In this document: positions 9,999-39,958 of the stretch, piece by piece
Position numbering within the stretch: position 1 is the first letter of the stretch
Layout: every line of letters starts with the position of its first letter
DNA from: Candidatus Woesearchaeota archaeon
Lineage (GTDB): Archaea; Nanobdellota; Nanobdellia; Woesearchaeales; JAFCFN01
Assembly (NCBI GenBank): GCA_017608625.1
Contig: JAFCFN010000001.1
Location: 19,828 to 83,827 of the forward strand
Direction of reading: 5' to 3'
DNA: 64,000 nucleotides
The notes under the pieces: model-generated
What the model saw: only the letters and a program-made list of their open reading frames with translations
Databases searched by the model: none
Told to the model about the DNA's origin: nothing
Made by a program: the position numbers and the translations under genes

Positions 9999-10211
9999 AT
10001 GACAAAACGGGAAGATAAAATGAAAAAACTTTTGATGAAACTGAATGATTTAAAGCATTTTTTAAAAAATAGCGCTTTAAGTGAAGAAAATATATTGGCA
10101 TTCTGTGCACCTCAGGCAAATGATAAAGACTTTAAAAAATTTTTAAGAAAGTTTGAGGAAATAGTAGATGAATTAAGAAAAAGCATAATAAAAGCAAGAA
10201 GATCAATTTAA
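9999..10211 (+). CDS. Hypothetical small protein
   Basis: The ORF is preceded by an SD-like AGGAGGT and has coding-like composition. Confidence 0.3.
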   Translation: MTKREDKMKKLLMKLNDLKHFLKNSALSEENILAFCAPQANDKDFKKFLRKFEEIVDELRKSIIKARRSI

Positions 10212-10886
10212 TTTTCTTAAAAAACCTAATAAAGCAAATGCTTCTCTCTTAGTTAGCATCGCTTTACCAATTATTCTTTTCCATAATCTTCTCTGGGTTT
10301 CTCTTTTTTGTTCTGTTTCAAAAGGCATTAATTTTAGTTTTTCATTAATTAATTTTAATATAATTTCTTTTTCTTTTTTTGTTATAGGAGGTATTCTTTT
10401 TGCCAGCTCCTTTTTCCCTTTTTCCTTAAATAATTCATAAAAAATAATTGCTGCTGCATGGGATATATTCAAAGCAGAATATTTAGAAGTAGGAATGTTT
10501 ATTATAAAATCACAGGCCAATATTTCTTTATTTGTCAAACCTGAATCTTCTCTGCCAAATAGAATTGCTATTTTTTCTTTTCTTCCTGTTATTTTTTCAG
10601 CAATTTGTTCAGGAAGCAGAGGAGATCTAGGAATGTTATAATCTCTACCTAACTTAGAGGTTGTTCCAATTAGATAATCAAATTTTTTAAGATATGAAAA
10701 ACCAACAATTTTAGCATTTTTTAGAATAGGTTTGGCGTGCTTTGCTCTTCTTATTGCTTCTGGACTTAAATGGTCGCATTTAGGATTTACTAAAATTAAA
10801 TTTTTCAAGTCAAAATTTAACATAACTCTTGCTATTGCTCCAACATTTCCAGGTGTTTTTGGTTCAATCAATATAACATAAATCAT
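10203..10886 (-). CDS. SpoU/TrmH-class RNA 2'-O-methyltransferase (TrmJ-like)
   Basis: The N-terminus IYVILIEPKTPGNVGAIARVMLNFDLKNLILVNP and the segments FGREDSGLTNKEI and SALNISHAAAIIFYE match the TrmJ/SPOUT knot motifs. Confidence 0.65.
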   Translation of the reverse strand: MIYVILIEPKTPGNVGAIARVMLNFDLKNLILVNPKCDHLSPEAIRRAKHAKPILKNAKIVGFSYLKKFDYLIGTTSKLGRDYNIPRSPLLPEQIAEKITGRKEKIAILFGREDSGLTNKEILACDFIINIPTSKYSALNISHAAAIIFYELFKEKGKKELAKRIPPITKKEKEIILKLINEKLKLMPFETEQKRETQRRLWKRIIGKAMLTKREAFALLGFLRKLN

Positions 10887-13018: not shown

Positions 13019-14116
13019 TTACTCCACAGCATATCTTAAAATTGCAGCAATTTTTCCTATATCTCTTAATTGCGCACCTTCCCTTGTTTCTGTTGAAATA
13101 ATTTTTACTGTCGCAGCTGTTTTTTTTGCTTCTGCTTCAAATTCTTCTATCTTCTCATCATCCAAATCTTCTGAGAGAAGTAAGATATCAACAGCACCAA
13201 TTTCAAGAACCTTTTTTACTTCATTTTCTCCATAACTGACTTTTGAAGGTTCTTTTGCTAAAAGTGTAAAAAACCTTTGCATTACTTCTTTTTCAGAAGC
13301 AACCTCTTCTTCAGCAAGAATGTCAGCTGATTTGTCCAATAGCTCCTGCAAACCAAATTCTCCTGTATAAGAGAGATCTTTTGTTCCAATTATCTTTTTT
13401 TGCAAGTCCCCTGTTAAGTAACCTCTATTGATAAAATCATTTACAGTTGTACCTGGTCCACCAATAATTATTCCTTTTAAATTTTTTATACCAAGAAATT
13501 CTTCTTTCATGTATTCTGCTATCTTTTTGTAATGATCTTTTAAAGCACCTTCTCTTAGTCTAGCAAATCTAGGAGCACTTTGTCCACCAGCTTTTATTTT
13601 TCCAGGTACTTCTGAATGGCTTTTTCTTATAGGAACTATTGTTTTTCCTTTTAAAAAAGCAAGCATAGCATCTCTTTGGTCCATAACAACTAATCCGTAA
13701 ACTTCTTTAACTTCCAGCATATTTTCTAGAATATCTAAAACAAATTGTTTGTCACATCTATAAATTCTTGTTTTAAGGGGAACAGGAGGTTCTATACTCC
13801 ATACTCTTACATCACTCTGTCCTTCTTTTTCTGCAACATTTCCTGAAAAAACAGCTAATCCATGATCAGGAGTTTTTTTGAACAATCTCAAATGTTGTAT
13901 CATTCTTTCTAAGGCATCTATTACATTTTTTCTTGTTGAAGTTGATTTAATATTAGAAGCAGTACCTTTTTCTTGGAATAAATGATTAATTATTTTGTTC
14001 ATATCATACCCAACAGGAATATAAACAGAAATAAGTTCAGTATGTCTAGCTCTATATCTAGCTAAATCTTTAATAAATTTTTTTAATTTATATTTTTGGT
14101 GAGCAGTTATTGACAT
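13019..14116 (-). CDS. prf1: Peptide chain release factor aRF1
   Basis: The GGQ motif (IKAGGQSAPRFARL) is present, and the domain order fits eRF1/aRF1. Confidence 0.85.
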   Translation of the reverse strand: MSITAHQKYKLKKFIKDLARYRARHTELISVYIPVGYDMNKIINHLFQEKGTASNIKSTSTRKNVIDALERMIQHLRLFKKTPDHGLAVFSGNVAEKEGQSDVRVWSIEPPVPLKTRIYRCDKQFVLDILENMLEVKEVYGLVVMDQRDAMLAFLKGKTIVPIRKSHSEVPGKIKAGGQSAPRFARLREGALKDHYKKIAEYMKEEFLGIKNLKGIIIGGPGTTVNDFINRGYLTGDLQKKIIGTKDLSYTGEFGLQELLDKSADILAEEEVASEKEVMQRFFTLLAKEPSKVSYGENEVKKVLEIGAVDILLLSEDLDDEKIEEFEAEAKKTAATVKIISTETREGAQLRDIGKIAAILRYAVE

Positions 14117-14215
14117 ATTTCAATAAATGAAAAGGAACATTTATAAATCTTATTGAAGATAGAAAGGTTTAAAAATAAACCAATACCTTCTAAAATGAAG
14201 GGCATTACTATGATA

Positions 14216-14412
14216 AAAAGCTACCCAAGGTGCGGGATCCTTTCAAGGACGCATAGCTGTGGGGTAGCTTGGTCTAGCCCTTCTGGTTTGGGTAGTTAAA
14301 ACTAAAAATACCAGACAACCCCGGTTCAAAAACAGCGTGCAGTTGAAACAGCATGCTGTATAACAGCTAACAGAAAGCTGTTTTTGAAACTCCGGGCAGC
14401 CCCATATATTTA
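14216..14412. ncRNA. Candidate structured non-coding RNA; class and strand undetermined
   Basis: A GC-rich island of about 190 nt sits in an AT-rich intergenic gap between aRF1 and L37ae. gctaccc (14220-26) pairs with gggtagc (14262-68). ttcaaaaacagc (14325-36) pairs with gctgtttttgaa (14377-88) over 12 bp, and ccgg/ccgg extends that helix. tctggt pairs with accaga. Only a spurious 60-aa ORF covers it. Confidence 0.4.
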
Positions 14413-14414
14413 AA

Positions 14415-14663
14415 ATGACAGCCACTAAAAAATACGATTCAGTTAAAAGATTTGGATCAAGGTATGGAAGAAGGATAAGGGAAAAAGTAGCTAAAATAGA
14501 ACAAGAGCTGAGAAAAAAACATACTTGTCCGTATTGCAGTTATAAACAAGTAAAAAGACTTGCAGCAGGAATTTGGTATTGTAAGAAATGTTCTACTAGA
14601 TTTACTGGTAAGGCCTATTCTCCTGTTAAAAGAATAGAGTTGGAGGTTGAGGAAAAATCGTAA
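14415..14663 (+). CDS. rpl37ae: Ribosomal protein L37Ae
   Basis: A C4 zinc ribbon (CPYCSYKQVKRLAAGIWYCKKCSTRFTGKAY) is present. The N-terminal RFGSRYGRRIR stretch is also consistent with L37ae. Confidence 0.85.
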   Translation: MTATKKYDSVKRFGSRYGRRIREKVAKIEQELRKKHTCPYCSYKQVKRLAAGIWYCKKCSTRFTGKAYSPVKRIELEVEEKS

Positions 14664-14665
14664 GC

Positions 14666-14794
14666 TACAAGTGTTTTAATTGTAATAAAAGAATTTCTTT
14701 GGAACATCTTAGAGGCAAGGTTAGATGTCCATATTGTGGAAGTATGATGTTATATAAAACAAAAAGTGTACCAACAAAAGTAAAAGCAAGATGA
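14666..14794 (+). CDS. rpoP: RNA polymerase subunit P (RpoP/Rpb12-like zinc ribbon); start codon unclear
   Basis: The frame encodes (I)VSYKCFNCNKRISLEHLRGKVRCPYCGSMMLYKTKSVPTKVKAR, which matches the RpoP pattern YKC..C...(x)..VRCPYCGS..LYK. There is no ATG, GTG or TTG between the upstream in-frame TGA and the first Cys. The stop overlaps the ATG of the next gene. Confidence 0.5.
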   Translation, partial: YKCFNCNKRISLEHLRGKVRCPYCGSMMLYKTKSVPTKVKAR

Positions 14795-18720: not shown

Positions 18721-19458
18721 TTGATCTATTTCTTAAAAAATTATGAGAAAATGATAAAAGTGATTATTTTTGATTTTGATGATACTTTAGAAAAATATGA
18801 CATAGCAAAACATTATGCAGAAAGGAGAATTGACAGATACTTTTCCAAAATATACGGAATTAAAAATATAGCAAAGCTATTGAGAGATATAGACTTATTC
18901 TATACAATAGAAGGAAAAACTAGAAAAGATGTTAGTTTATACAGACGAGAGCTTTGGTTTAAGGATATTTTTCATAAACTTAAAATAAAACCAAAGAAGG
19001 ATGAAATTAAAAAACTAGTAAATCTTTACTGGAACTCCATATATGAGAAAATTACTTTAATGCCAAACACAAAAAATGTTTTAAGAACACTAAAAAAGAA
19101 ATTCAAACTTGCGATTATTTCTGATTCTGATGGGAATAAAACAATAAAAACTAGAAGACTTATGAAACTAGGCATAATCAGGTTTTTCGATGTAGTTGTT
19201 ACAGGCGATGATATTAAAACAACAAAACCAGATAAAAAATTCTATTTTATGATATTTAAAAAATTAAAGGTAAGACCTTTTGAGTGTGTAATTGTAGGTG
19301 ATAAGCCAGAATACGATTTAGAAGTAGCCAAGAAACTTGGTTTAACAACAGTTTGGTTTGTTTATGGTGATTGGGCAAAACGCGAGAAAAGAAAGCATTT
19401 TAAATACGTAGACTTTAAAATAAATTCTTTGAAAGAATTGATAAAATTATTTAATTAG
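18721..19458 (+). CDS. HAD-superfamily hydrolase
   Basis: Motif I (IIFDFDDTL) and motif IV (VGDKPEYDLEVAKKLG) are present. Confidence 0.65.
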   Translation: MIYFLKNYEKMIKVIIFDFDDTLEKYDIAKHYAERRIDRYFSKIYGIKNIAKLLRDIDLFYTIEGKTRKDVSLYRRELWFKDIFHKLKIKPKKDEIKKLVNLYWNSIYEKITLMPNTKNVLRTLKKKFKLAIISDSDGNKTIKTRRLMKLGIIRFFDVVVTGDDIKTTKPDKKFYFMIFKKLKVRPFECVIVGDKPEYDLEVAKKLGLTTVWFVYGDWAKREKRKHFKYVDFKINSLKELIKLFN

Positions 19459-20534
19459 TTCAGATTGCCTTTTGTTAAATCGCCTCCAAGTAAATGTTGT
19501 CTAGTTATGGAATAATCAACTCTTTTTACTCTTTCATTAATCAAGTATTTAACAAACTCTAAAGTTCGTCTTACCCATGATTTTCCTTGATTTATATTAG
19601 CAAAGTGTTCTTTTAATTCATCAAAAGTTAATCCTTTTAAATTCGATTTTGACATTTTTTCTCCATCCTCGCCATAAAATAATGGACCTATAAGATATAT
19701 TGGAACTTTAGTGCCTCTAAGCGAATCTGTTTTATTTGCTAAGATAGTGGTTATTTTCTTAGCTTTTTCAACCTTTGACAATTCTCCTGCATGACTCTCA
19801 AAATAATCCCCTCCATATACATGAACATCTGTCTGTGGTTCTGTAACAATATCTCTTATGGAATTAATTAAATAATGAGCCGAAATAGAAATATTTCGAT
19901 CATACAAATCAAATTTATATCTTTTTTGATCACAAGCTTCATTATTACAATCTGCTTCAATTTCTATTCTATCATTTTTTCCTTTTGCTAAGACAGGAAA
20001 TGTTCGTGTAACAGTATGACATTTAGGACAAATAGGATGTATTGGAATCTTACGATTTTTACTTTCATCTCCTGTAAGTATCTTTTTGATAGTGTCTCTT
20101 TCTTTAATAAGAGTTTCAAGACAATTTCTGTACTTTACAGTTGATTGAATATCAGAAAGCCAGTTAAAATGATAATTGATTCCGATCTCTGCTTGCACCA
20201 AAGACATAAACTCTTTAACTTTTGCAGTGCTATATGCAGCAAGGTTTGGATATTCCTCTAGTGGACTTTTAATATATTTAAAGGGATAAGCTATCTTGCC
20301 TTTTGACTCACTTGGCAAATCAATGTCTAAAACAGTTATTTCTAATTCAGTTGTACTTGTGCCTAGATAGTGTGTTAGCCATGATGCTAAAAGAAGCGTG
20401 CTTATATTTCCTAAGTGAATCTGTCCAGATGGTCTAAAACCTACACTCACTTTCTTTCTGGGTTTGTTAGATAATAACTCAACTATGCTGTCTAAAGAGA
20501 AGTATACTCCTTTTGGGGTTTTTCTTCCATCCAT
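19455..20534 (-). CDS. Class I aminoacyl-tRNA synthetase catalytic core, LysRS class I-like (HxGN, KMSKS, Cys-rich insertion); apparently lacks a C-terminal anticodon-binding domain
   Basis: GFRPSGQIHLGNISTLL carries the HIGH-variant HxGN typical of LysK. A KMSKS motif (GEKMSKSNLKG) and a CPKC...C..C insertion are present. The gene is only 359 aa, against more than 500 aa for full LysRS-I. Confidence 0.55.
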   Translation of the reverse strand: MDGRKTPKGVYFSLDSIVELLSNKPRKKVSVGFRPSGQIHLGNISTLLLASWLTHYLGTSTTELEITVLDIDLPSESKGKIAYPFKYIKSPLEEYPNLAAYSTAKVKEFMSLVQAEIGINYHFNWLSDIQSTVKYRNCLETLIKERDTIKKILTGDESKNRKIPIHPICPKCHTVTRTFPVLAKGKNDRIEIEADCNNEACDQKRYKFDLYDRNISISAHYLINSIRDIVTEPQTDVHVYGGDYFESHAGELSKVEKAKKITTILANKTDSLRGTKVPIYLIGPLFYGEDGEKMSKSNLKGLTFDELKEHFANINQGKSWVRRTLEFVKYLINERVKRVDYSITRQHLLGGDLTKGNLN

Positions 20535-23407: not shown

Positions 23408-24484
23408 TTATGCTGAAATTATGTTATTTTCCTCATCGACACTAAAAACCTTTCCTAAGAATTGTTCTGTTGTATAAATGTTTGTTTTAGTATGGTTAGT
23501 TATTTCAGCAACTTTTATTTTTCCTCCAAATAAAGCTAAGAAAGGTATTAAATTGTCAGACATGTGTTCATCAACAGCAGCTTTGCTTTCTATTTGTTTG
23601 ATTAAATTATCAGCTGCTTCTTTTCCTACACTTTCTGCTCTTTTGCCTCTCTCTCCTAAAGCATCTCCTCCTAAAATAATTGGATTTGAATCAAGCTCTT
23701 CTGAGAATATAGCATAGAGTGTAATGCCAGATCCTGGGGATAGAGTGTCACAATATTCTGTTCTTATGTTTATTGGGCAGCTATATTTGCTTAAGATTAA
23801 TTTAGCTGCTCTTGCTTGTCTTTCAGCAATATTTGCTTTTTCCAAAAATTTAGATGCATGAGAAATCCCTTTTATTTGTTGCAGATTTCCTTGATTTATT
23901 AATTCTATTTTTGGTGCATTTTCTTTTAAGAATTCCCAGAATTCTTCAAATGTATTAAAGTCTGATAATTTATATTTTTGATTTATTTTAATATCAACTT
24001 TTCCTCCACCTTTAGGAAAATAACCTCTTTTTATTAAATCAATCTTTATATCAACATATTTTTTAATTTGAGGCACAAAAATTTCCTTGAAAAAATCATA
24101 CGACATTGCCCATTTAACATCTGTTCCACCAGTTATTTTTAATCTTACTTTTTTATTAGCAAATAAACTTGGAAGCAATATTGCTTGAAGCAATAAAGAA
24201 ATGCTGCCTGCTGTTCCAATATCTATGCTAATTATTTTACCCCCTATTTTATTAGGATAATATTTTAGATATTCAGAACCTAAATAAGCCCCATCAACTT
24301 TTGCAGAACAAAGTTTTTGCAATGCTTTAACACAATATAGGTGTTGAGCTTTTAAACCAGGATTTGGTCTACCCTTTCTTATATTTGTAACCTCAAATGC
24401 CTCGCCAGTTAGAGTGGATAAAGCCAAAGCTGTTCTGACTATTTGACCACCACCTTCTAAATATGAACCATCTAATTTTATCAT
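23408..24484 (-). CDS. rtcA: RNA 3'-terminal phosphate cyclase
   Basis: The N-terminus MIKLDGSYLEGGGQIVRTALALSTLTG matches the RtcA signature. Confidence 0.8.
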   Translation of the reverse strand: MIKLDGSYLEGGGQIVRTALALSTLTGEAFEVTNIRKGRPNPGLKAQHLYCVKALQKLCSAKVDGAYLGSEYLKYYPNKIGGKIISIDIGTAGSISLLLQAILLPSLFANKKVRLKITGGTDVKWAMSYDFFKEIFVPQIKKYVDIKIDLIKRGYFPKGGGKVDIKINQKYKLSDFNTFEEFWEFLKENAPKIELINQGNLQQIKGISHASKFLEKANIAERQARAAKLILSKYSCPINIRTEYCDTLSPGSGITLYAIFSEELDSNPIILGGDALGERGKRAESVGKEAADNLIKQIESKAAVDEHMSDNLIPFLALFGGKIKVAEITNHTKTNIYTTEQFLGKVFSVDEENNIISA

Positions 24485-26949: not shown

Positions 26950-27297
26950 GTGAGAGAGGGTGATATGATGGTAAGTTTTGCTGAATGGGAAAAGCTAGAT
27001 TTGAAGATAGGTACAATAAAAGCTGTCAAACAGCACCCAAATGCTGATAAACTTTATGTTTTGTTGATAGAGATGGGTGAAGGAGAACAAGATAGAGAAT
27101 TAGTTGCCGGATTAAAAGAGCATTACTCTGAAGATGAGTTGATAGGTAAAAAAGTAATTGTTCTTGCAAATTTAGAACCAAAGATAGTAAGAGGAATTAC
27201 TTCAGAGGGCATGGTGTTGGCAGCAGATGACGGGACAAATCCTATTGCTTTGCTAACTGTTGACAGAGATGTCAATGATGGAGCAAAGGTAAGGTGA
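26950..27297 (+). CDS. tRNA-binding domain protein (Trbp111/CsaA/MetRS C-terminal-like OB fold)
   Basis: The sequence WEKLDLKIGTIKAVKQHPNADKLYVLLIEMGEG...IVLANLEPKIVRGITSEGMVLAA fits that domain. Confidence 0.7.
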   Translation: MREGDMMVSFAEWEKLDLKIGTIKAVKQHPNADKLYVLLIEMGEGEQDRELVAGLKEHYSEDELIGKKVIVLANLEPKIVRGITSEGMVLAADDGTNPIALLTVDRDVNDGAKVR

Positions 27298-35133: not shown

Positions 35134-36108
35134 TTGTTTTTATGGTCATTAGATATGGTACAGATAAGCGCCAAATTAAAGTCATTATTGGAGAAACAGC
35201 ATTATGAAGTAGTTGGTAGACACTCTGCTGTTGAGATTTGTGGTTGGACAAAGAAGAGCTTATTAGATAAAGGATATTGTTATAAGCAAAAGTTTTATGG
35301 AATTAAAAGTCATAGATGCTGTCAGATGACTCCTTCAGTAGGTTTCTGTAATCAGAGATGTATATTCTGCTGGAGAGCAATTGAAGAAACAGTAGGCAAT
35401 AAAATGGACAGAGATGTTGATGATCCTAATGAAATTATTAAAGGCTGTTTAGAAGCTCAAAGAAGAAAGCTCTCTGGTTTTGGTGGGAATCCAAAGTTGA
35501 ACAAAAAAAAATTCAAAGAAGCTCAAGATCCTATGCATTTTGCAATATCTCTTGCTGGAGAGCCTACATTATATCCAAAACTACCTGATTTAATAAAAGA
35601 ATTGCATAAACAAGGGAAAACAACATTCCTTGTTACAAATGGAACTAATCCCGCCATGCTTAAAAGGTTGATAAGGGAAAATGCTATGCCAACTCAGCTT
35701 TATATTAGTCTAGATGCTCCAAATAAAGAGTTATATAAAAAAATAGATATGCCTGTAATAAAAGGTGGTTGGGAAAGATTGCAACAAAGTCTAGCTTTGA
35801 TGAAAAAATTCAAGAGAAATGTTCTTAGAATAACCGCTATAAAAGGTTTAAATATGGAGCATGCTGAACAATACGCTGCTTTGATCAAGAAATATAAGCC
35901 ATTGTTTGTTGAGGTTAAGGCTTATATGTGGGTGGGATGGAGCAGGAAGAGATTAAGTATTGAGAATATGCCCTTGCATTCTGATATTAAAAGATTTTCC
36001 AAAGAAATTGCTAAATATTCTGGTTACAAGATAATTGATGAAAAGAAAGAGAGTAGAGTTTGCTTGCTTGCTGAAAAGGATTTTAAAGACAGGAAATTAC
36101 GGTTCTAA
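35134..36108 (+). CDS. taw1: tRNA 4-demethylwyosine synthase (radical SAM, Taw1/TYW1)
   Basis: A CxxxCxxC cluster (FCNQRCIFCW) follows extra Cys residues (SHRCCQMTPS). The string AVEICGWTKKSLLDKGYCYKQKFYGIKSH and the later AISLAGEPTLYP closely resemble archaeal Taw1 as I recall it. The true start is probably the internal MVQIS. Confidence 0.7.
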   Translation: MFLWSLDMVQISAKLKSLLEKQHYEVVGRHSAVEICGWTKKSLLDKGYCYKQKFYGIKSHRCCQMTPSVGFCNQRCIFCWRAIEETVGNKMDRDVDDPNEIIKGCLEAQRRKLSGFGGNPKLNKKKFKEAQDPMHFAISLAGEPTLYPKLPDLIKELHKQGKTTFLVTNGTNPAMLKRLIRENAMPTQLYISLDAPNKELYKKIDMPVIKGGWERLQQSLALMKKFKRNVLRITAIKGLNMEHAEQYAALIKKYKPLFVEVKAYMWVGWSRKRLSIENMPLHSDIKRFSKEIAKYSGYKIIDEKKESRVCLLAEKDFKDRKLRF

Positions 36109-38108: not shown

Positions 38109-38572
38109 TATAACACCCAGCTTAAAGCTTGAGCTCCTGTTAAATACGCTGCTGTAACAATCAGACCTGCTATGACAACTCCTAGACTAATTGCAAGGAA
38201 TGATTTGAGTTTTTTCATTCCAAAAAACCAAGCTGCTAGCGTTCCTGTATACGCACCTGTGATAGGTAAGGGAATCGTAACAAATAATGTTAAGCCAATA
38301 TAGCCATATTTTTCTATTTTTTTCCGCACTTTTTTTCTCGTTCTTTCAAGAAATTTTTCAAATGTTCTTTTATAGATGGGAATAATCATAAAGATTCTGT
38401 GCAATGTTCCTAAAAAGATAAATACAAGAGGTATGACAAAAATATTTGCTATGACGCACACAAAATATGCTGTAACTGGATTTACTCCAGAAGCTAATGC
38501 TAATGGGATACCTCCTCTTAATTCTGCTATTGGCAATAATGAAAGAATTATTGCATTGATTATTGCTTCCAT
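38108..38572 (-). CDS. Small multi-TM membrane protein
   Basis: Four predicted TM segments are present, and no family is recognised. Confidence 0.4.
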   Translation of the reverse strand: MEAIINAIILSLLPIAELRGGIPLALASGVNPVTAYFVCVIANIFVIPLVFIFLGTLHRIFMIIPIYKRTFEKFLERTRKKVRKKIEKYGYIGLTLFVTIPLPITGAYTGTLAAWFFGMKKLKSFLAISLGVVIAGLIVTAAYLTGAQALSWVL

Positions 38573-38599
38573 CTTAACCGCAAAATCGGTTAACGCTTT

Positions 38600-38627
38600 G
38601 TCCTATCTTCGCTTTGCTCGATAGGTC
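38600..38627 (-). repeat. GC-rich stem-loop (gtcctatc...gataggtc) overlapping the cca stop codon; same motif family as 44885-44916
   Basis: The stem gtcctatc / gataggtc is 7 of 8 bp, with the loop ttcgctttgctc. A second hairpin, ttaaccg-caaaat-cggttaa, lies at 38574-38593. The region is GC-rich. Confidence 0.45.
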
Positions 38628-39958
38628 TCGCCTCGCTTACGCTCGGCAATTTTGCTAACCTTTGCTTTTATATACTTATCAGTTTTAATTAGATTTTTTA
38701 CAAGATTTTCTGGTTTGGTAAAAGTTCTCTTTGTTTTTGCCCATAATCTACCATTTCTTGTAAATGTTTTTTTATACTTTTTTTTGAAATTTGCTATAAA
38801 ATGTTTTGGAGCTGTTAAAGGAGGACCGATTATTTCTTTATATTTTGGTAGCTCTCTTTTGTTAGTTATTATCCAGAATAAAGCTTTTTTCTTTTTATCC
38901 CACTCCCAGCCATAATTAACTACCTTGAAATCATTTTGTTTTAATTTTTTAACAATCCATTTTAAGGCTTTTAATAACTTACTCCCAACAATATCTTCTT
39001 TACCACTTAAAGCTATTATATCAAGCAAAATTAATTTTCTATTCTTAGCTTTTTTTCTTAAATCTTCTATTGAAAATTTTTTTTCTTCAAAAAATTCCTT
39101 GCTCGGTCTTTTTAAAAATCTTTGACAAGTTTTTTTGAAGATATTGAATTTTTCCAAGGACAGAGCAGCTGTTATATTTCGTGTTTTTTGCACAGGATCT
39201 ATTATCACTAAAGGAGACTGTAGTTTTGATGGATTTAATTCATTGAGAGGATTTTTTCCTTTATAATACCTTTTTAAATCAATAACAACTTTTGGTTTCC
39301 ATTTGACTGCCTTTTTGACTAAGTTTATAAATGAGCCATAATAAATAATTAACACTTCACAAGCGTAGCCTGAAAAACCACTTATATAGCTTTCAGCTCC
39401 ATAGCAGTTCTGAGCTTTGCAGAATTTTTTTAATAATCTTATTTCATCACATAGCTTAGAATATTTTTTAACAAACAAGGCATGTAAAGGAGAAATATCA
39501 GTTATATTCATTGCTTGCGCTGGTTTTTTTATGTTTAAAATAGGAACTACTTCAAATGTAAAATTCTTTTCTTTTATTTGGAAATAATCCCTACTTCCAT
39601 GCAGTCTTGTTATCTTGAAATGTTTTTTTAATATTGGTTCTAAAATATCTGAAAGTTTATCTGATTTATCTTTATATTTTTTATAGTTAAATAAAACAAA
39701 GATGTCAGCATCTTTAACACCTTTCAGCCATGTATCTTTTGCTCCTGAGCCTCCTAGAATGGCCTTAGCGTCTTTAAGTGATTTATTTAGTTTGTTCAAA
39801 AAATTAGTTATCTTTTTTTTGAGCTCTTCTCTTTCTTTTTGAGTAGGTTTTATCTCCTTAAGAACCTCTTTTAGGATTTCCATGATGTTTATATAATTTG
39901 GGCAGTTTAAAAGGTTTTCTAAAGGTTCTGTAAAATTGTTATATTTATTTGTTGTCAA
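38603..39958 (-). CDS. cca: CCA-adding tRNA nucleotidyltransferase (archaeal class I)
   Basis: The N-terminus is EILKEVLKEIKPTQKEREELKK...AILGGSGAKDTWLKGVKDADIFVLF. The pattern G[SG]xxxGxxxxx[SD]D[IV]D of the class I nucleotidyltransferase fold is present. Confidence 0.75.
   Translation of the reverse strand: MTTNKYNNFTEPLENLLNCPNYINIMEILKEVLKEIKPTQKEREELKKKITNFLNKLNKSLKDAKAILGGSGAKDTWLKGVKDADIFVLFNYKKYKDKSDKLSDILEPILKKHFKITRLHGSRDYFQIKEKNFTFEVVPILNIKKPAQAMNITDISPLHALFVKKYSKLCDEIRLLKKFCKAQNCYGAESYISGFSGYACEVLIIYYGSFINLVKKAVKWKPKVVIDLKRYYKGKNPLNELNPSKLQSPLVIIDPVQKTRNITAALSLEKFNIFKKTCQRFLKRPSKEFFEEKKFSIEDLRKKAKNRKLILLDIIALSGKEDIVGSKLLKALKWIVKKLKQNDFKVVNYGWEWDKKKKALFWIITNKRELPKYKEIIGPPLTAPKHFIANFKKKYKKTFTRNGRLWAKTKRTFTKPENLVKNLIKTDKYIKAKVSKIAERKRGETYRAKRR

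Follow-up and report, generated by a model that had tools for sequence, protein, structure and literature searches.

One example of a multiply interrupted archaeal tRNA gene is that of the tRNA-Pro(UGG) of Pyrobaculum islandicum, which carries introns at positions 25/26, 37/38 and 56/57 (Sugahara et al. 2007, via PMC4090602), and introns at 59/60 and at 3/4 (Thermoproteales, an "extreme case", 2008) have already been published as well, according to PMC4090602. The corresponding splice sites lie in bulge-helix-bulge (BHB) motifs, which we take, following the same source, to consist of a 4-bp helix between two 3-nt bulges, each cut after its second nucleotide; at canonical introns, the first two anticodon nucleotides are part of the central helix of the archaeal motif (PMC4090602). 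Within the DPANN archaea, ARMAN-2 possesses a broad-specificity epsilon2 EndA (PMC3239211), and an alpha4 EndA with an L3 loop occurs in several lineages according to a survey that took in a Woesearchaeota genome and that ascribed incomplete DPANN tRNA sets to undetected disrupted genes (PMC5829648).

Here we describe a locus of this kind within the window, i.e., the whole 64-kb stretch of DNA that was analysed. A structured GC-rich island, in which a first-pass annotation had failed to find a cloverleaf, very probably represents a tRNA-Pro(UGG) gene (14234-14404, + strand) of a Woesearchaeota-like DPANN archaeon, with three predicted BHB introns at positions 3/4, 37/38 and 59/60. The tRNA was thus the correct class all along, hidden by its introns.

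A structured island between aRF1 and L37ae

The island (14194-14405) is the highest GC peak of the whole 64 kb, in agreement with its earlier description as GC-rich, reaching 0.57 in 70-nt windows against a window mean of 0.306 (30.6 %); in 100-nt windows, GC is 0.47-0.49 over 14200-14349 versus about 0.20-0.36 on each side. Its placement between the aRF1 and L37ae genes is borne out by Pfam, and the inverted repeats listed in the first-pass annotation are all present and are recovered in the minimum free energy (MFE) fold:

13019-14116, - strand: aRF1 gene (Pfam eRF1_1/2/3, eRF1 family), divergent from the tRNA
14220-14226 with 14262-14268: stem GCTACCC/GGGTAGC
14282-14287 with 14310-14315: stem TCTGGT/ACCAGA
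14321-14324 with 14392-14395: stem CCGG/CCGG
14325-14336 with 14377-14388: 12-bp stem TTCAAAAACAGC/GCTGTTTTTGAA
14243-14425, antisense: 60-aa ORF with a GTG start, spurious, as already held before
14415-14663, + strand: ribosomal protein L37ae gene (Pfam PF01780, E = 3e-23)

The 298 nt previously given as the distance to both flanking genes is in fact the entire aRF1-L37ae spacer (14117-14414), within which the structured part leaves about 100 nt free on the side of the aRF1 ATG and 10 nt on that of the L37ae ATG. The + strand folds at -74.7 kcal/mol, compared with -55.6 +/- 4.0 kcal/mol for dinucleotide shuffles (z = -4.74; equalled by 0 of 200 shuffles), whereas the - strand is less stable relative to its shuffles (z = -3.02). 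The assignment of the island to a non-coding RNA gene on the + strand holds.

Two further GC peaks of the window were characterised. The one at 2704-2805 is coding. The second-highest of all (38563-38671) contains a structured stretch of about 90 nt (38573-38660, - strand; -30.4 kcal/mol, z = -3.7), which has no Rfam match at E <= 5 and overlaps the final ~19 codons of the CCA-adding enzyme gene as well as the 30 nt that separate this gene from one for a small multidrug exporter.

Standard RNA searches leave the unspliced island unassigned. Rfam at gathering scores returns zero matches over the whole window, and at E <= 10 over 14100-14480, on both strands, it finds no tRNA, SRP RNA, RNase P RNA or H/ACA RNA, in keeping with the earlier label of an unclassified RNA; the four matches obtained (snoR41, cow-rumen-4, DUF2693 and RUF1) are at chance level and do not meaningfully overlap the core. 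ARAGORN likewise calls zero tRNAs in the unspliced window, and none in the native island with or without its intron option. Taken together with the GC richness, the fold (z = -4.7) and a loose likeness to known motifs noticed by eye, this lack of an Rfam match is what recommends a new or highly reduced structured ncRNA, be it an SRP RNA, an RNase P RNA, an H/ACA guide or another class. However, the SRP, RNase P and H/ACA models remain without a match even at the permissive threshold, and for a tRNA gene interrupted by introns the failure of the genomic sequence to reach the RF00005 tRNA gathering score (29 bits) is the expected result.

Exons, introns and bulge-helix-bulge junctions

Reading the island as an interrupted tRNA gene resolves it into four exons and three introns, preceded by a leader:

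14168-14177, + strand: putative TATA-like box TTTAAAAATA for the pre-tRNA, read from the sequence
14200-14233, + strand: 5' leader, with a presumed start
14234-14236, + strand: exon 1 (GGG, positions 1-3)
14237-14255, + strand: intron 1 (19 nt, position 3/4)
14256-14292, + strand: exon 2 (positions 4-37)
14293-14309, + strand: intron 2 (17 nt, canonical position 37/38)
14310-14330, + strand: exon 3 (positions 38-59)
14331-14390, + strand: intron 3 (60 nt, position 59/60)
14391-14404, + strand: exon 4 (positions 60-73)

Boxes resembling the putative promoter element (TTTAAATA/TTTATAAA) lie upstream of the orthologous tRNA in related loci, and the element in the window would put the transcript start near 14198-14203. 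Joining exon 1 to exon 2 yields GGGGCUG, the full complement of CAGCCCC at 14397-14403. Exon 2 comprises GCUG, U8 and G9, the D arm GGGU-AGCUUGGUCUA-GCCC and U26, followed by the anticodon stem strand UCUGG and the loop UUUGGG with the anticodon UGG and G37. Exon 3 supplies A38, CCAGA, the variable loop CAAC (at 4 nt short, a length seen in all orthologues), the T stem strand CCCGG and the T loop UUCAAA, and exon 4 adds U60, the 3' strand of the T stem (CCGGG), that of the acceptor stem (CAGCCCC) and the discriminator A73. CCA is not encoded by the gene; TAT comes next after A73.

In-silico splicing gives the 75-nt product GGGGCTGTGGGGTAGCTTGGTCTAGCCCTTCTGGTTTGGGACCAGACAACCCCGGTTCAAATCCGGGCAGCCCCA, which ARAGORN identifies as tRNA-Pro(tgg) with 7 of 7 acceptor pairs and 5 bp each in the anticodon and T stems; the call is lost when intron 3 is kept together with intron 1 or intron 2. 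Besides the anticodon UGG, G37, the anticodon loop UUUGGGA, the T loop UUCAAAU and A73, the spliced sequence has the features of a canonical cloverleaf, namely U8, G18-G19, U33, G53-U54-U55-C56-R57-A58, C61 and a 7-bp acceptor stem. That this cloverleaf was not visible by eye is explained by the three introns that interrupt the gene.

All stems of the island, and both motifs that had suggested other RNA classes, are accounted for by tRNA exons and BHB helices. The GCUACCC/GGGUAGC stem joins the 5' leader to tRNA nucleotides 10-16, UCUGGU/ACCAGA corresponds to the anticodon stem extended by U32-A38 and CCGG/CCGG to the T stem, and in the 12-bp helix the T loop and the first part of intron 3 pair with the last part of that intron. 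The segment GAAACUCCGGGCAGCC, previously compared with the RNase P CR-I motif, is the end of intron 3 followed by the 3' strands of the T and acceptor stems, and GGUUCAAAAACAGCGUGCAG, previously compared with the SRP RNA helix 5/8 junction, is G52-G53 with the T loop UUCAAA, continuing into intron 3. Thus, what had been proposed as a reduced SRP or RNase P RNA, an H/ACA guide or a new structured RNA has no model match and is composed of tRNA and BHB parts.

A BHB or a recognised relaxed form of it is found at every junction, and the central helix is fully paired (4/4) at nearly all junctions of the window and related loci. Intron 1 has a strict hBHBh' motif. Its central helix pairs UGCG (14231-14234), made up of the leader nucleotides UGC 14231-14233 and G1, with CGCA (14250-14253); the bulges are GG|A and UA|G, and the inner helix h' is UCCU (14238-14241) with AGGA (14246-14249). 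The outer helix consists of two pairs, formed by leader GG 14229-14230 with C5-U6 (14257-14258), and of the 7-bp leader-D-arm helix, in which GCUACCC (14220-14226) pairs with GGGUAGC (14262-14268). This strict conformer, at -21.4 kcal/mol, lies 0.9 kcal/mol from the local MFE (-22.3).

An ARAGORN call of a 75-nt tRNA-Pro starting at about 14253, obtained when introns 2 and 3 are removed and intron 1 is kept, would allow a gene with two introns only (37/38 and 59/60), in which AUAGCUG forms the acceptor strand and the upstream hairpin is a leader structure. We consider this highly improbable. AUAGCUG leaves positions 1-3 unpaired opposite CCC, whereas GGG 14234-14236 gives 7 of 7 pairs; the strict hBHBh' motif brackets exactly the 19 nt in question; and the same arrangement, with a covarying central helix, recurs in four other loci. 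In one of these (L049), the RF00005 match is limited to model positions 4-67, and its beginning at position 4 fits a 3/4 intron.

At intron 2, within the three-intron gene, the anticodon stem serves as outer helix, the bulges are GG|U and AU|A, and h' is AGU/ACU. The A-U-rich central helix (UUUG with AAAA) has 3 of 4 pairs in the window, where G35 stands opposite A, and is fully paired in 11 of the 13 loci that bear this intron, the exceptions being the window and L023; in the window, the energy model disfavours the BHB conformer (-2.8 versus -10.0 kcal/mol). At intron 3, the outer helix is the T stem, the central helix UUCA (14325-14328) with UGAA (14385-14388) is complete (4/4), and the 3-nt 3' bulge AC|U (14389-14391) is clean. 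The 5' splice site AA|A falls within a weak A-U helix or junction loop, the MFE fold pairing AAA with UUU, and the BHB/loop conformer has -30.4 kcal/mol compared with -32.4 kcal/mol for the MFE. This junction is a relaxed motif, hBH/BHL-like, and as such needs a broad-specificity endonuclease.

Several other properties of the introns and of the window were searched for. The 60-nt intron 3, read by eye, has neither the RUGAUGA nor the CUGA box of a C/D-box guide. As to transposed intron copies elsewhere in the window, blastn-short gave just 12-16-nt chance matches, and a search of the window for further hidden tRNAs through intact T arms (G-TTCRA with a 5-bp stem) gave three A/T-rich chance matches, none of them credible.

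Orthologous loci and covariation

With the aRF1 protein as anchor, 70 related loci were collected from species-representative genomes, the closest of which (65-74 % aRF1 identity) belong to Woesearchaeota/Nanoarchaeota MAGs. A fully delimited tRNA-Pro(UGG) orthologue lies between aRF1 and L37ae in at least 22 MAG loci, with exons 75-92 % identical to the spliced window sequence across these 22. The same three intron sites apply throughout the 23 loci (these 22 and the window), with each intron occurring independently of the others:

No intron: L036, L040
Intron 1 only: L049
Intron 2 only: L010, L011, L012, L016, L018, L027
Intron 3 only: L001, L004, L014, L058, L069
Introns 1 and 3: L013, L056
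Introns 2 and 3: L022, L029, L033, L038, L051
All three introns: L023 and the window

Seven of the eight possible combinations are therefore represented. Intron 1 occurs in five loci (the window, L013, L023, L049 and L056), while intron 2 is absent from 10 and intron 3 from 9, so that each intron is missing from 9-18 of the 23. Intron lengths vary from 19 to 45 nt (intron 1), 14 to 43 nt (intron 2) and 19 to 122 nt (intron 3), and their sequences are little conserved among loci. The intron-less orthologues L036 and L040 score 53.5 and 53.9 bits with RF00005 (gathering score 29), and ARAGORN calls tRNA-Pro(tgg) in seven related loci.

The existence of intron-free orthologues shows that the introns can be dispensed with in making the mature RNA. 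Since these loci hold an uninterrupted tRNA of 75-76 nt at the same position, the extra segments of the window are dispensable insertions rather than parts of a larger conserved RNA, and these segments are not conserved across genomes. With this, the proposal of a new or reduced structured ncRNA is effectively refuted.

Compensatory changes, which the first-pass annotation had named as the signature to seek in homologous loci, are indeed present in both the cloverleaf and the BHB helices of the 23 sequences. In the cloverleaf, 96.4 % of cells are paired versus 33-60 % with slid partners, and 8 of 21 pairs have changed on both sides; 0 of 500 shuffles attain the observed covariation score, a control that overstates significance because the sequences are related, whereas the slid-partner controls and the exon-intron compensatory changes are independent of kinship. 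In junction alignments constructed from fixed-length flanks rather than aligned freely, the central helix of intron 1 is 100 % paired in its five loci, with 3 of 4 pairs changed on both sides (UGCG/CGCA, UGUG/CACA, CAUG/CAUG and AAUG/CAUU), and at intron 3 exon nucleotide 57 covaries with its intron partner (A-U in 7, G-C in 5, unpaired in 2).

These data also bear on whether the gene in the window is a decaying pseudogene, its insertions left unremoved and its function taken over by another tRNA-Pro(UGG) elsewhere in the genome. Three interruptions within one gene, the mismatch in the intron 2 helix and an intron 3 5' site outside a clean bulge would suit such decay, and a further tRNA-Pro gene could lie beyond the 64 kb covered. 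Yet the exon stems are all perfectly paired, the residues invariant in the 23 aligned genes are retained, the insertions sit exactly at the BHB intron sites of the orthologues with their central helices kept by compensatory changes, and synteny is conserved across aRF1 identities of 65-74 %, which leaves decay a very unlikely explanation compared with an intact, intron-bearing tRNA-Pro(UGG) gene.

The distribution of the introns has implications for their history. Nearly every combination at three fixed sites points to repeated recent gain and/or precise loss at "hot" positions, and we regard such turnover of BHB introns as plausible. A leader segment complementary to the D arm is present in 5 of the 5 loci that bear intron 1. 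Four loci that lack this intron (L018, L027, L058 and L069) also have a leader CTAC or CTACC, about 10-20 nt upstream of G1, complementary to D-arm GGUAG, the same pairing as that of the outer helix of the intron 1 BHB where the intron is present. This pairing may have outlasted an intron since lost, or may reflect an interaction of leader and D arm in its own right; in the former case these leader remnants would be footprints of the lost intron. Separately, intron 3 of L014, L023 and L029 has the motif AAGGGG(C/T)T(C/T)CC in common, sequence and length differing otherwise, which suggests common descent of some of the 59/60 introns.

Proposed maturation, a possible L37ae co-transcript and known systems

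The exon structure, the cloverleaf, the BHB motifs with their covariation and the orthologues that carry or lack each intron are established computationally; the transcription start, the splicing itself, the order of its steps and the enzymes involved are what we infer, on the archaeal tRNA processing scheme (PMC4090602, PMC5829648). Transcription from the TATA-like box near 14168 would yield a precursor carrying about 34 nt of leader, which would fold so as to place every exon-intron junction in a BHB motif, that of intron 1 drawing on the 5' leader, on G1 and on the D arm (5' half). EndA would then cleave six sites, predicted at G14236/A14237 and A14255/G14256 (intron 1), G14292/U14293 and U14309/A14310 (intron 2), and A14330/A14331 and C14390/U14391 (intron 3). 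The four exons would be ligated by an RtcB-type ligase, the tRNA ends trimmed by RNase P and RNase Z, and CCA added by the CCA-adding enzyme encoded at 38603-39883. Because the BHB of intron 1 uses the leader and a strand of the D arm, its excision would have to precede both leader trimming by RNase P and formation of the cloverleaf; it is therefore plausible, as implied by the sequence, that intron 1 is excised before 5' maturation.

Neither EndA nor RtcB was found among the ~70 ORFs encoded in the 64 kb, with the threshold relaxed to E <= 0.05 for those lacking a family assignment, so that the splicing machinery is assumed from the lineage only. Other genes related to tRNA or RNA processing are encoded there:

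10203-10886, - strand: SpoU methylase
23408-24484, - strand: RNA 3'-phosphate cyclase RtcA
26965-27297, + strand: tRNA_bind-domain protein
35155-36108, + strand: Tyw1-like radical-SAM wyosine enzyme
38603-39883, - strand: CCA-adding enzyme

Additionally, a 359-aa ORF (19455-20534, - strand) matches only the N-terminal half of class I lysyl-tRNA synthetase (profile positions 21-205 of 360, E = 1e-12) and may encode a truncated, split or divergent LysRS.

The tRNA 3' end is separated from the L37ae ATG by 10 nt in the window (14404-14417), and by 8-36 nt in 14 of the 17 related loci in which L37ae was located (L001, L014, L027, L029, L033 and L051 included). This spacing is too short for a separate TATA promoter, which suggests that the tRNA and L37ae are co-transcribed; cleavage of the co-transcript by RNase Z would, the arrangement suggests, free an almost leaderless L37ae mRNA. 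The same short distance, leaving no room for a separate promoter, is what could make the island primarily a cis-acting 5'-UTR or processing element of an L37ae-RpoP-prefoldin operon instead of a tRNA gene in its own right. This reading retains virtually no probability: the element is a complete, conserved tRNA-Pro with its anticodon and stems intact, and a separate TATA-like box is present in the spacer of L011, L018 and L049 (61-81 nt) and of L013 (36 nt). Moreover, co-transcription is compatible with the tRNA gene and is no substitute for it.

Downstream of L37ae lies a small zinc-ribbon ORF (14657-14794, + strand; KCFNC...CPYCG), which we take to resemble RNA polymerase subunit P/Rpb12 (RpoP). 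It begins with ATC at 14657-14659, and no standard start codon is present ahead of its first CxxC; in 19 of 19 orthologous loci the ORF starts with ATG (ATG GTA xxx TAY AAR TGY). The gene may use a non-canonical start or be defective, or the ATC may be a sequencing error.

The locus represents neither a new RNA class nor a new mechanism, this kind of gene being already known, and what it adds is modest: a 3/4 intron in a Woesearchaeota-like lineage and a series of loci with and without each intron. The former extends to a DPANN lineage a rare acceptor-stem intron hitherto described for Thermoproteales, and the latter, with its 23 loci, provides a compact natural data set for studying how introns are gained and lost and how BHB helices covary. 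The tRNA may further act, at the 5' end of a transcript shared with L37ae and RpoP, as a processing module that frees the ribosomal-protein mRNA with almost no leader. That recurrent BHB intron gain and precise loss, splicing before RNase P, intron-loss footprints and an L37ae processing module should all hold jointly is a tentative proposal, and on balance a doubtful one. On a practical level, where a GC-rich "orphan" structured island of a DPANN genome escapes both ARAGORN and Rfam, a multiply interrupted tRNA gene is the likely explanation, and a BHB-aware splicing check is due before either a new RNA or a missing tRNA is called.

Among known systems, the closest counterpart is the tRNA-Pro(UGG) gene of P. 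islandicum, the same isoacceptor with three protein-spliced introns, one canonical and two non-canonical. It differs in that the non-canonical introns of the window gene are at 3/4 and 59/60, and in that the host is a low-GC DPANN archaeon, whereas P. islandicum is a hyperthermophilic crenarchaeon. As in the multi-intron tRNAs of Thermoproteales, the junctions combine strict and relaxed BHB motifs and the gene is missed by standard tRNA finders. Similar to the Thermoproteales 3/4 intron, intron 1 splits the acceptor stem after nucleotide 3, and its BHB must therefore include the 5' leader; in contrast to that case, it occurs in Woesearchaeota-like genomes (the window, L013, L023, L049 and L056), with a strict hBHBh' motif, the outer helix of which forms between leader and D arm. 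For disrupted tRNA genes in the same superphylum, genome-level counts have been reported (PMC3239211, PMC5829648), whereas the present analysis follows one locus and its orthologues. Finally, as in the split tRNAs of Nanoarchaeum equitans (PMC4090602), a GC-rich leader or intervening sequence pairs with parts of the tRNA to create a BHB-like EndA substrate; unlike those, the four exons lie in cis and in order within 171 bp, so that trans-splicing is unneeded.
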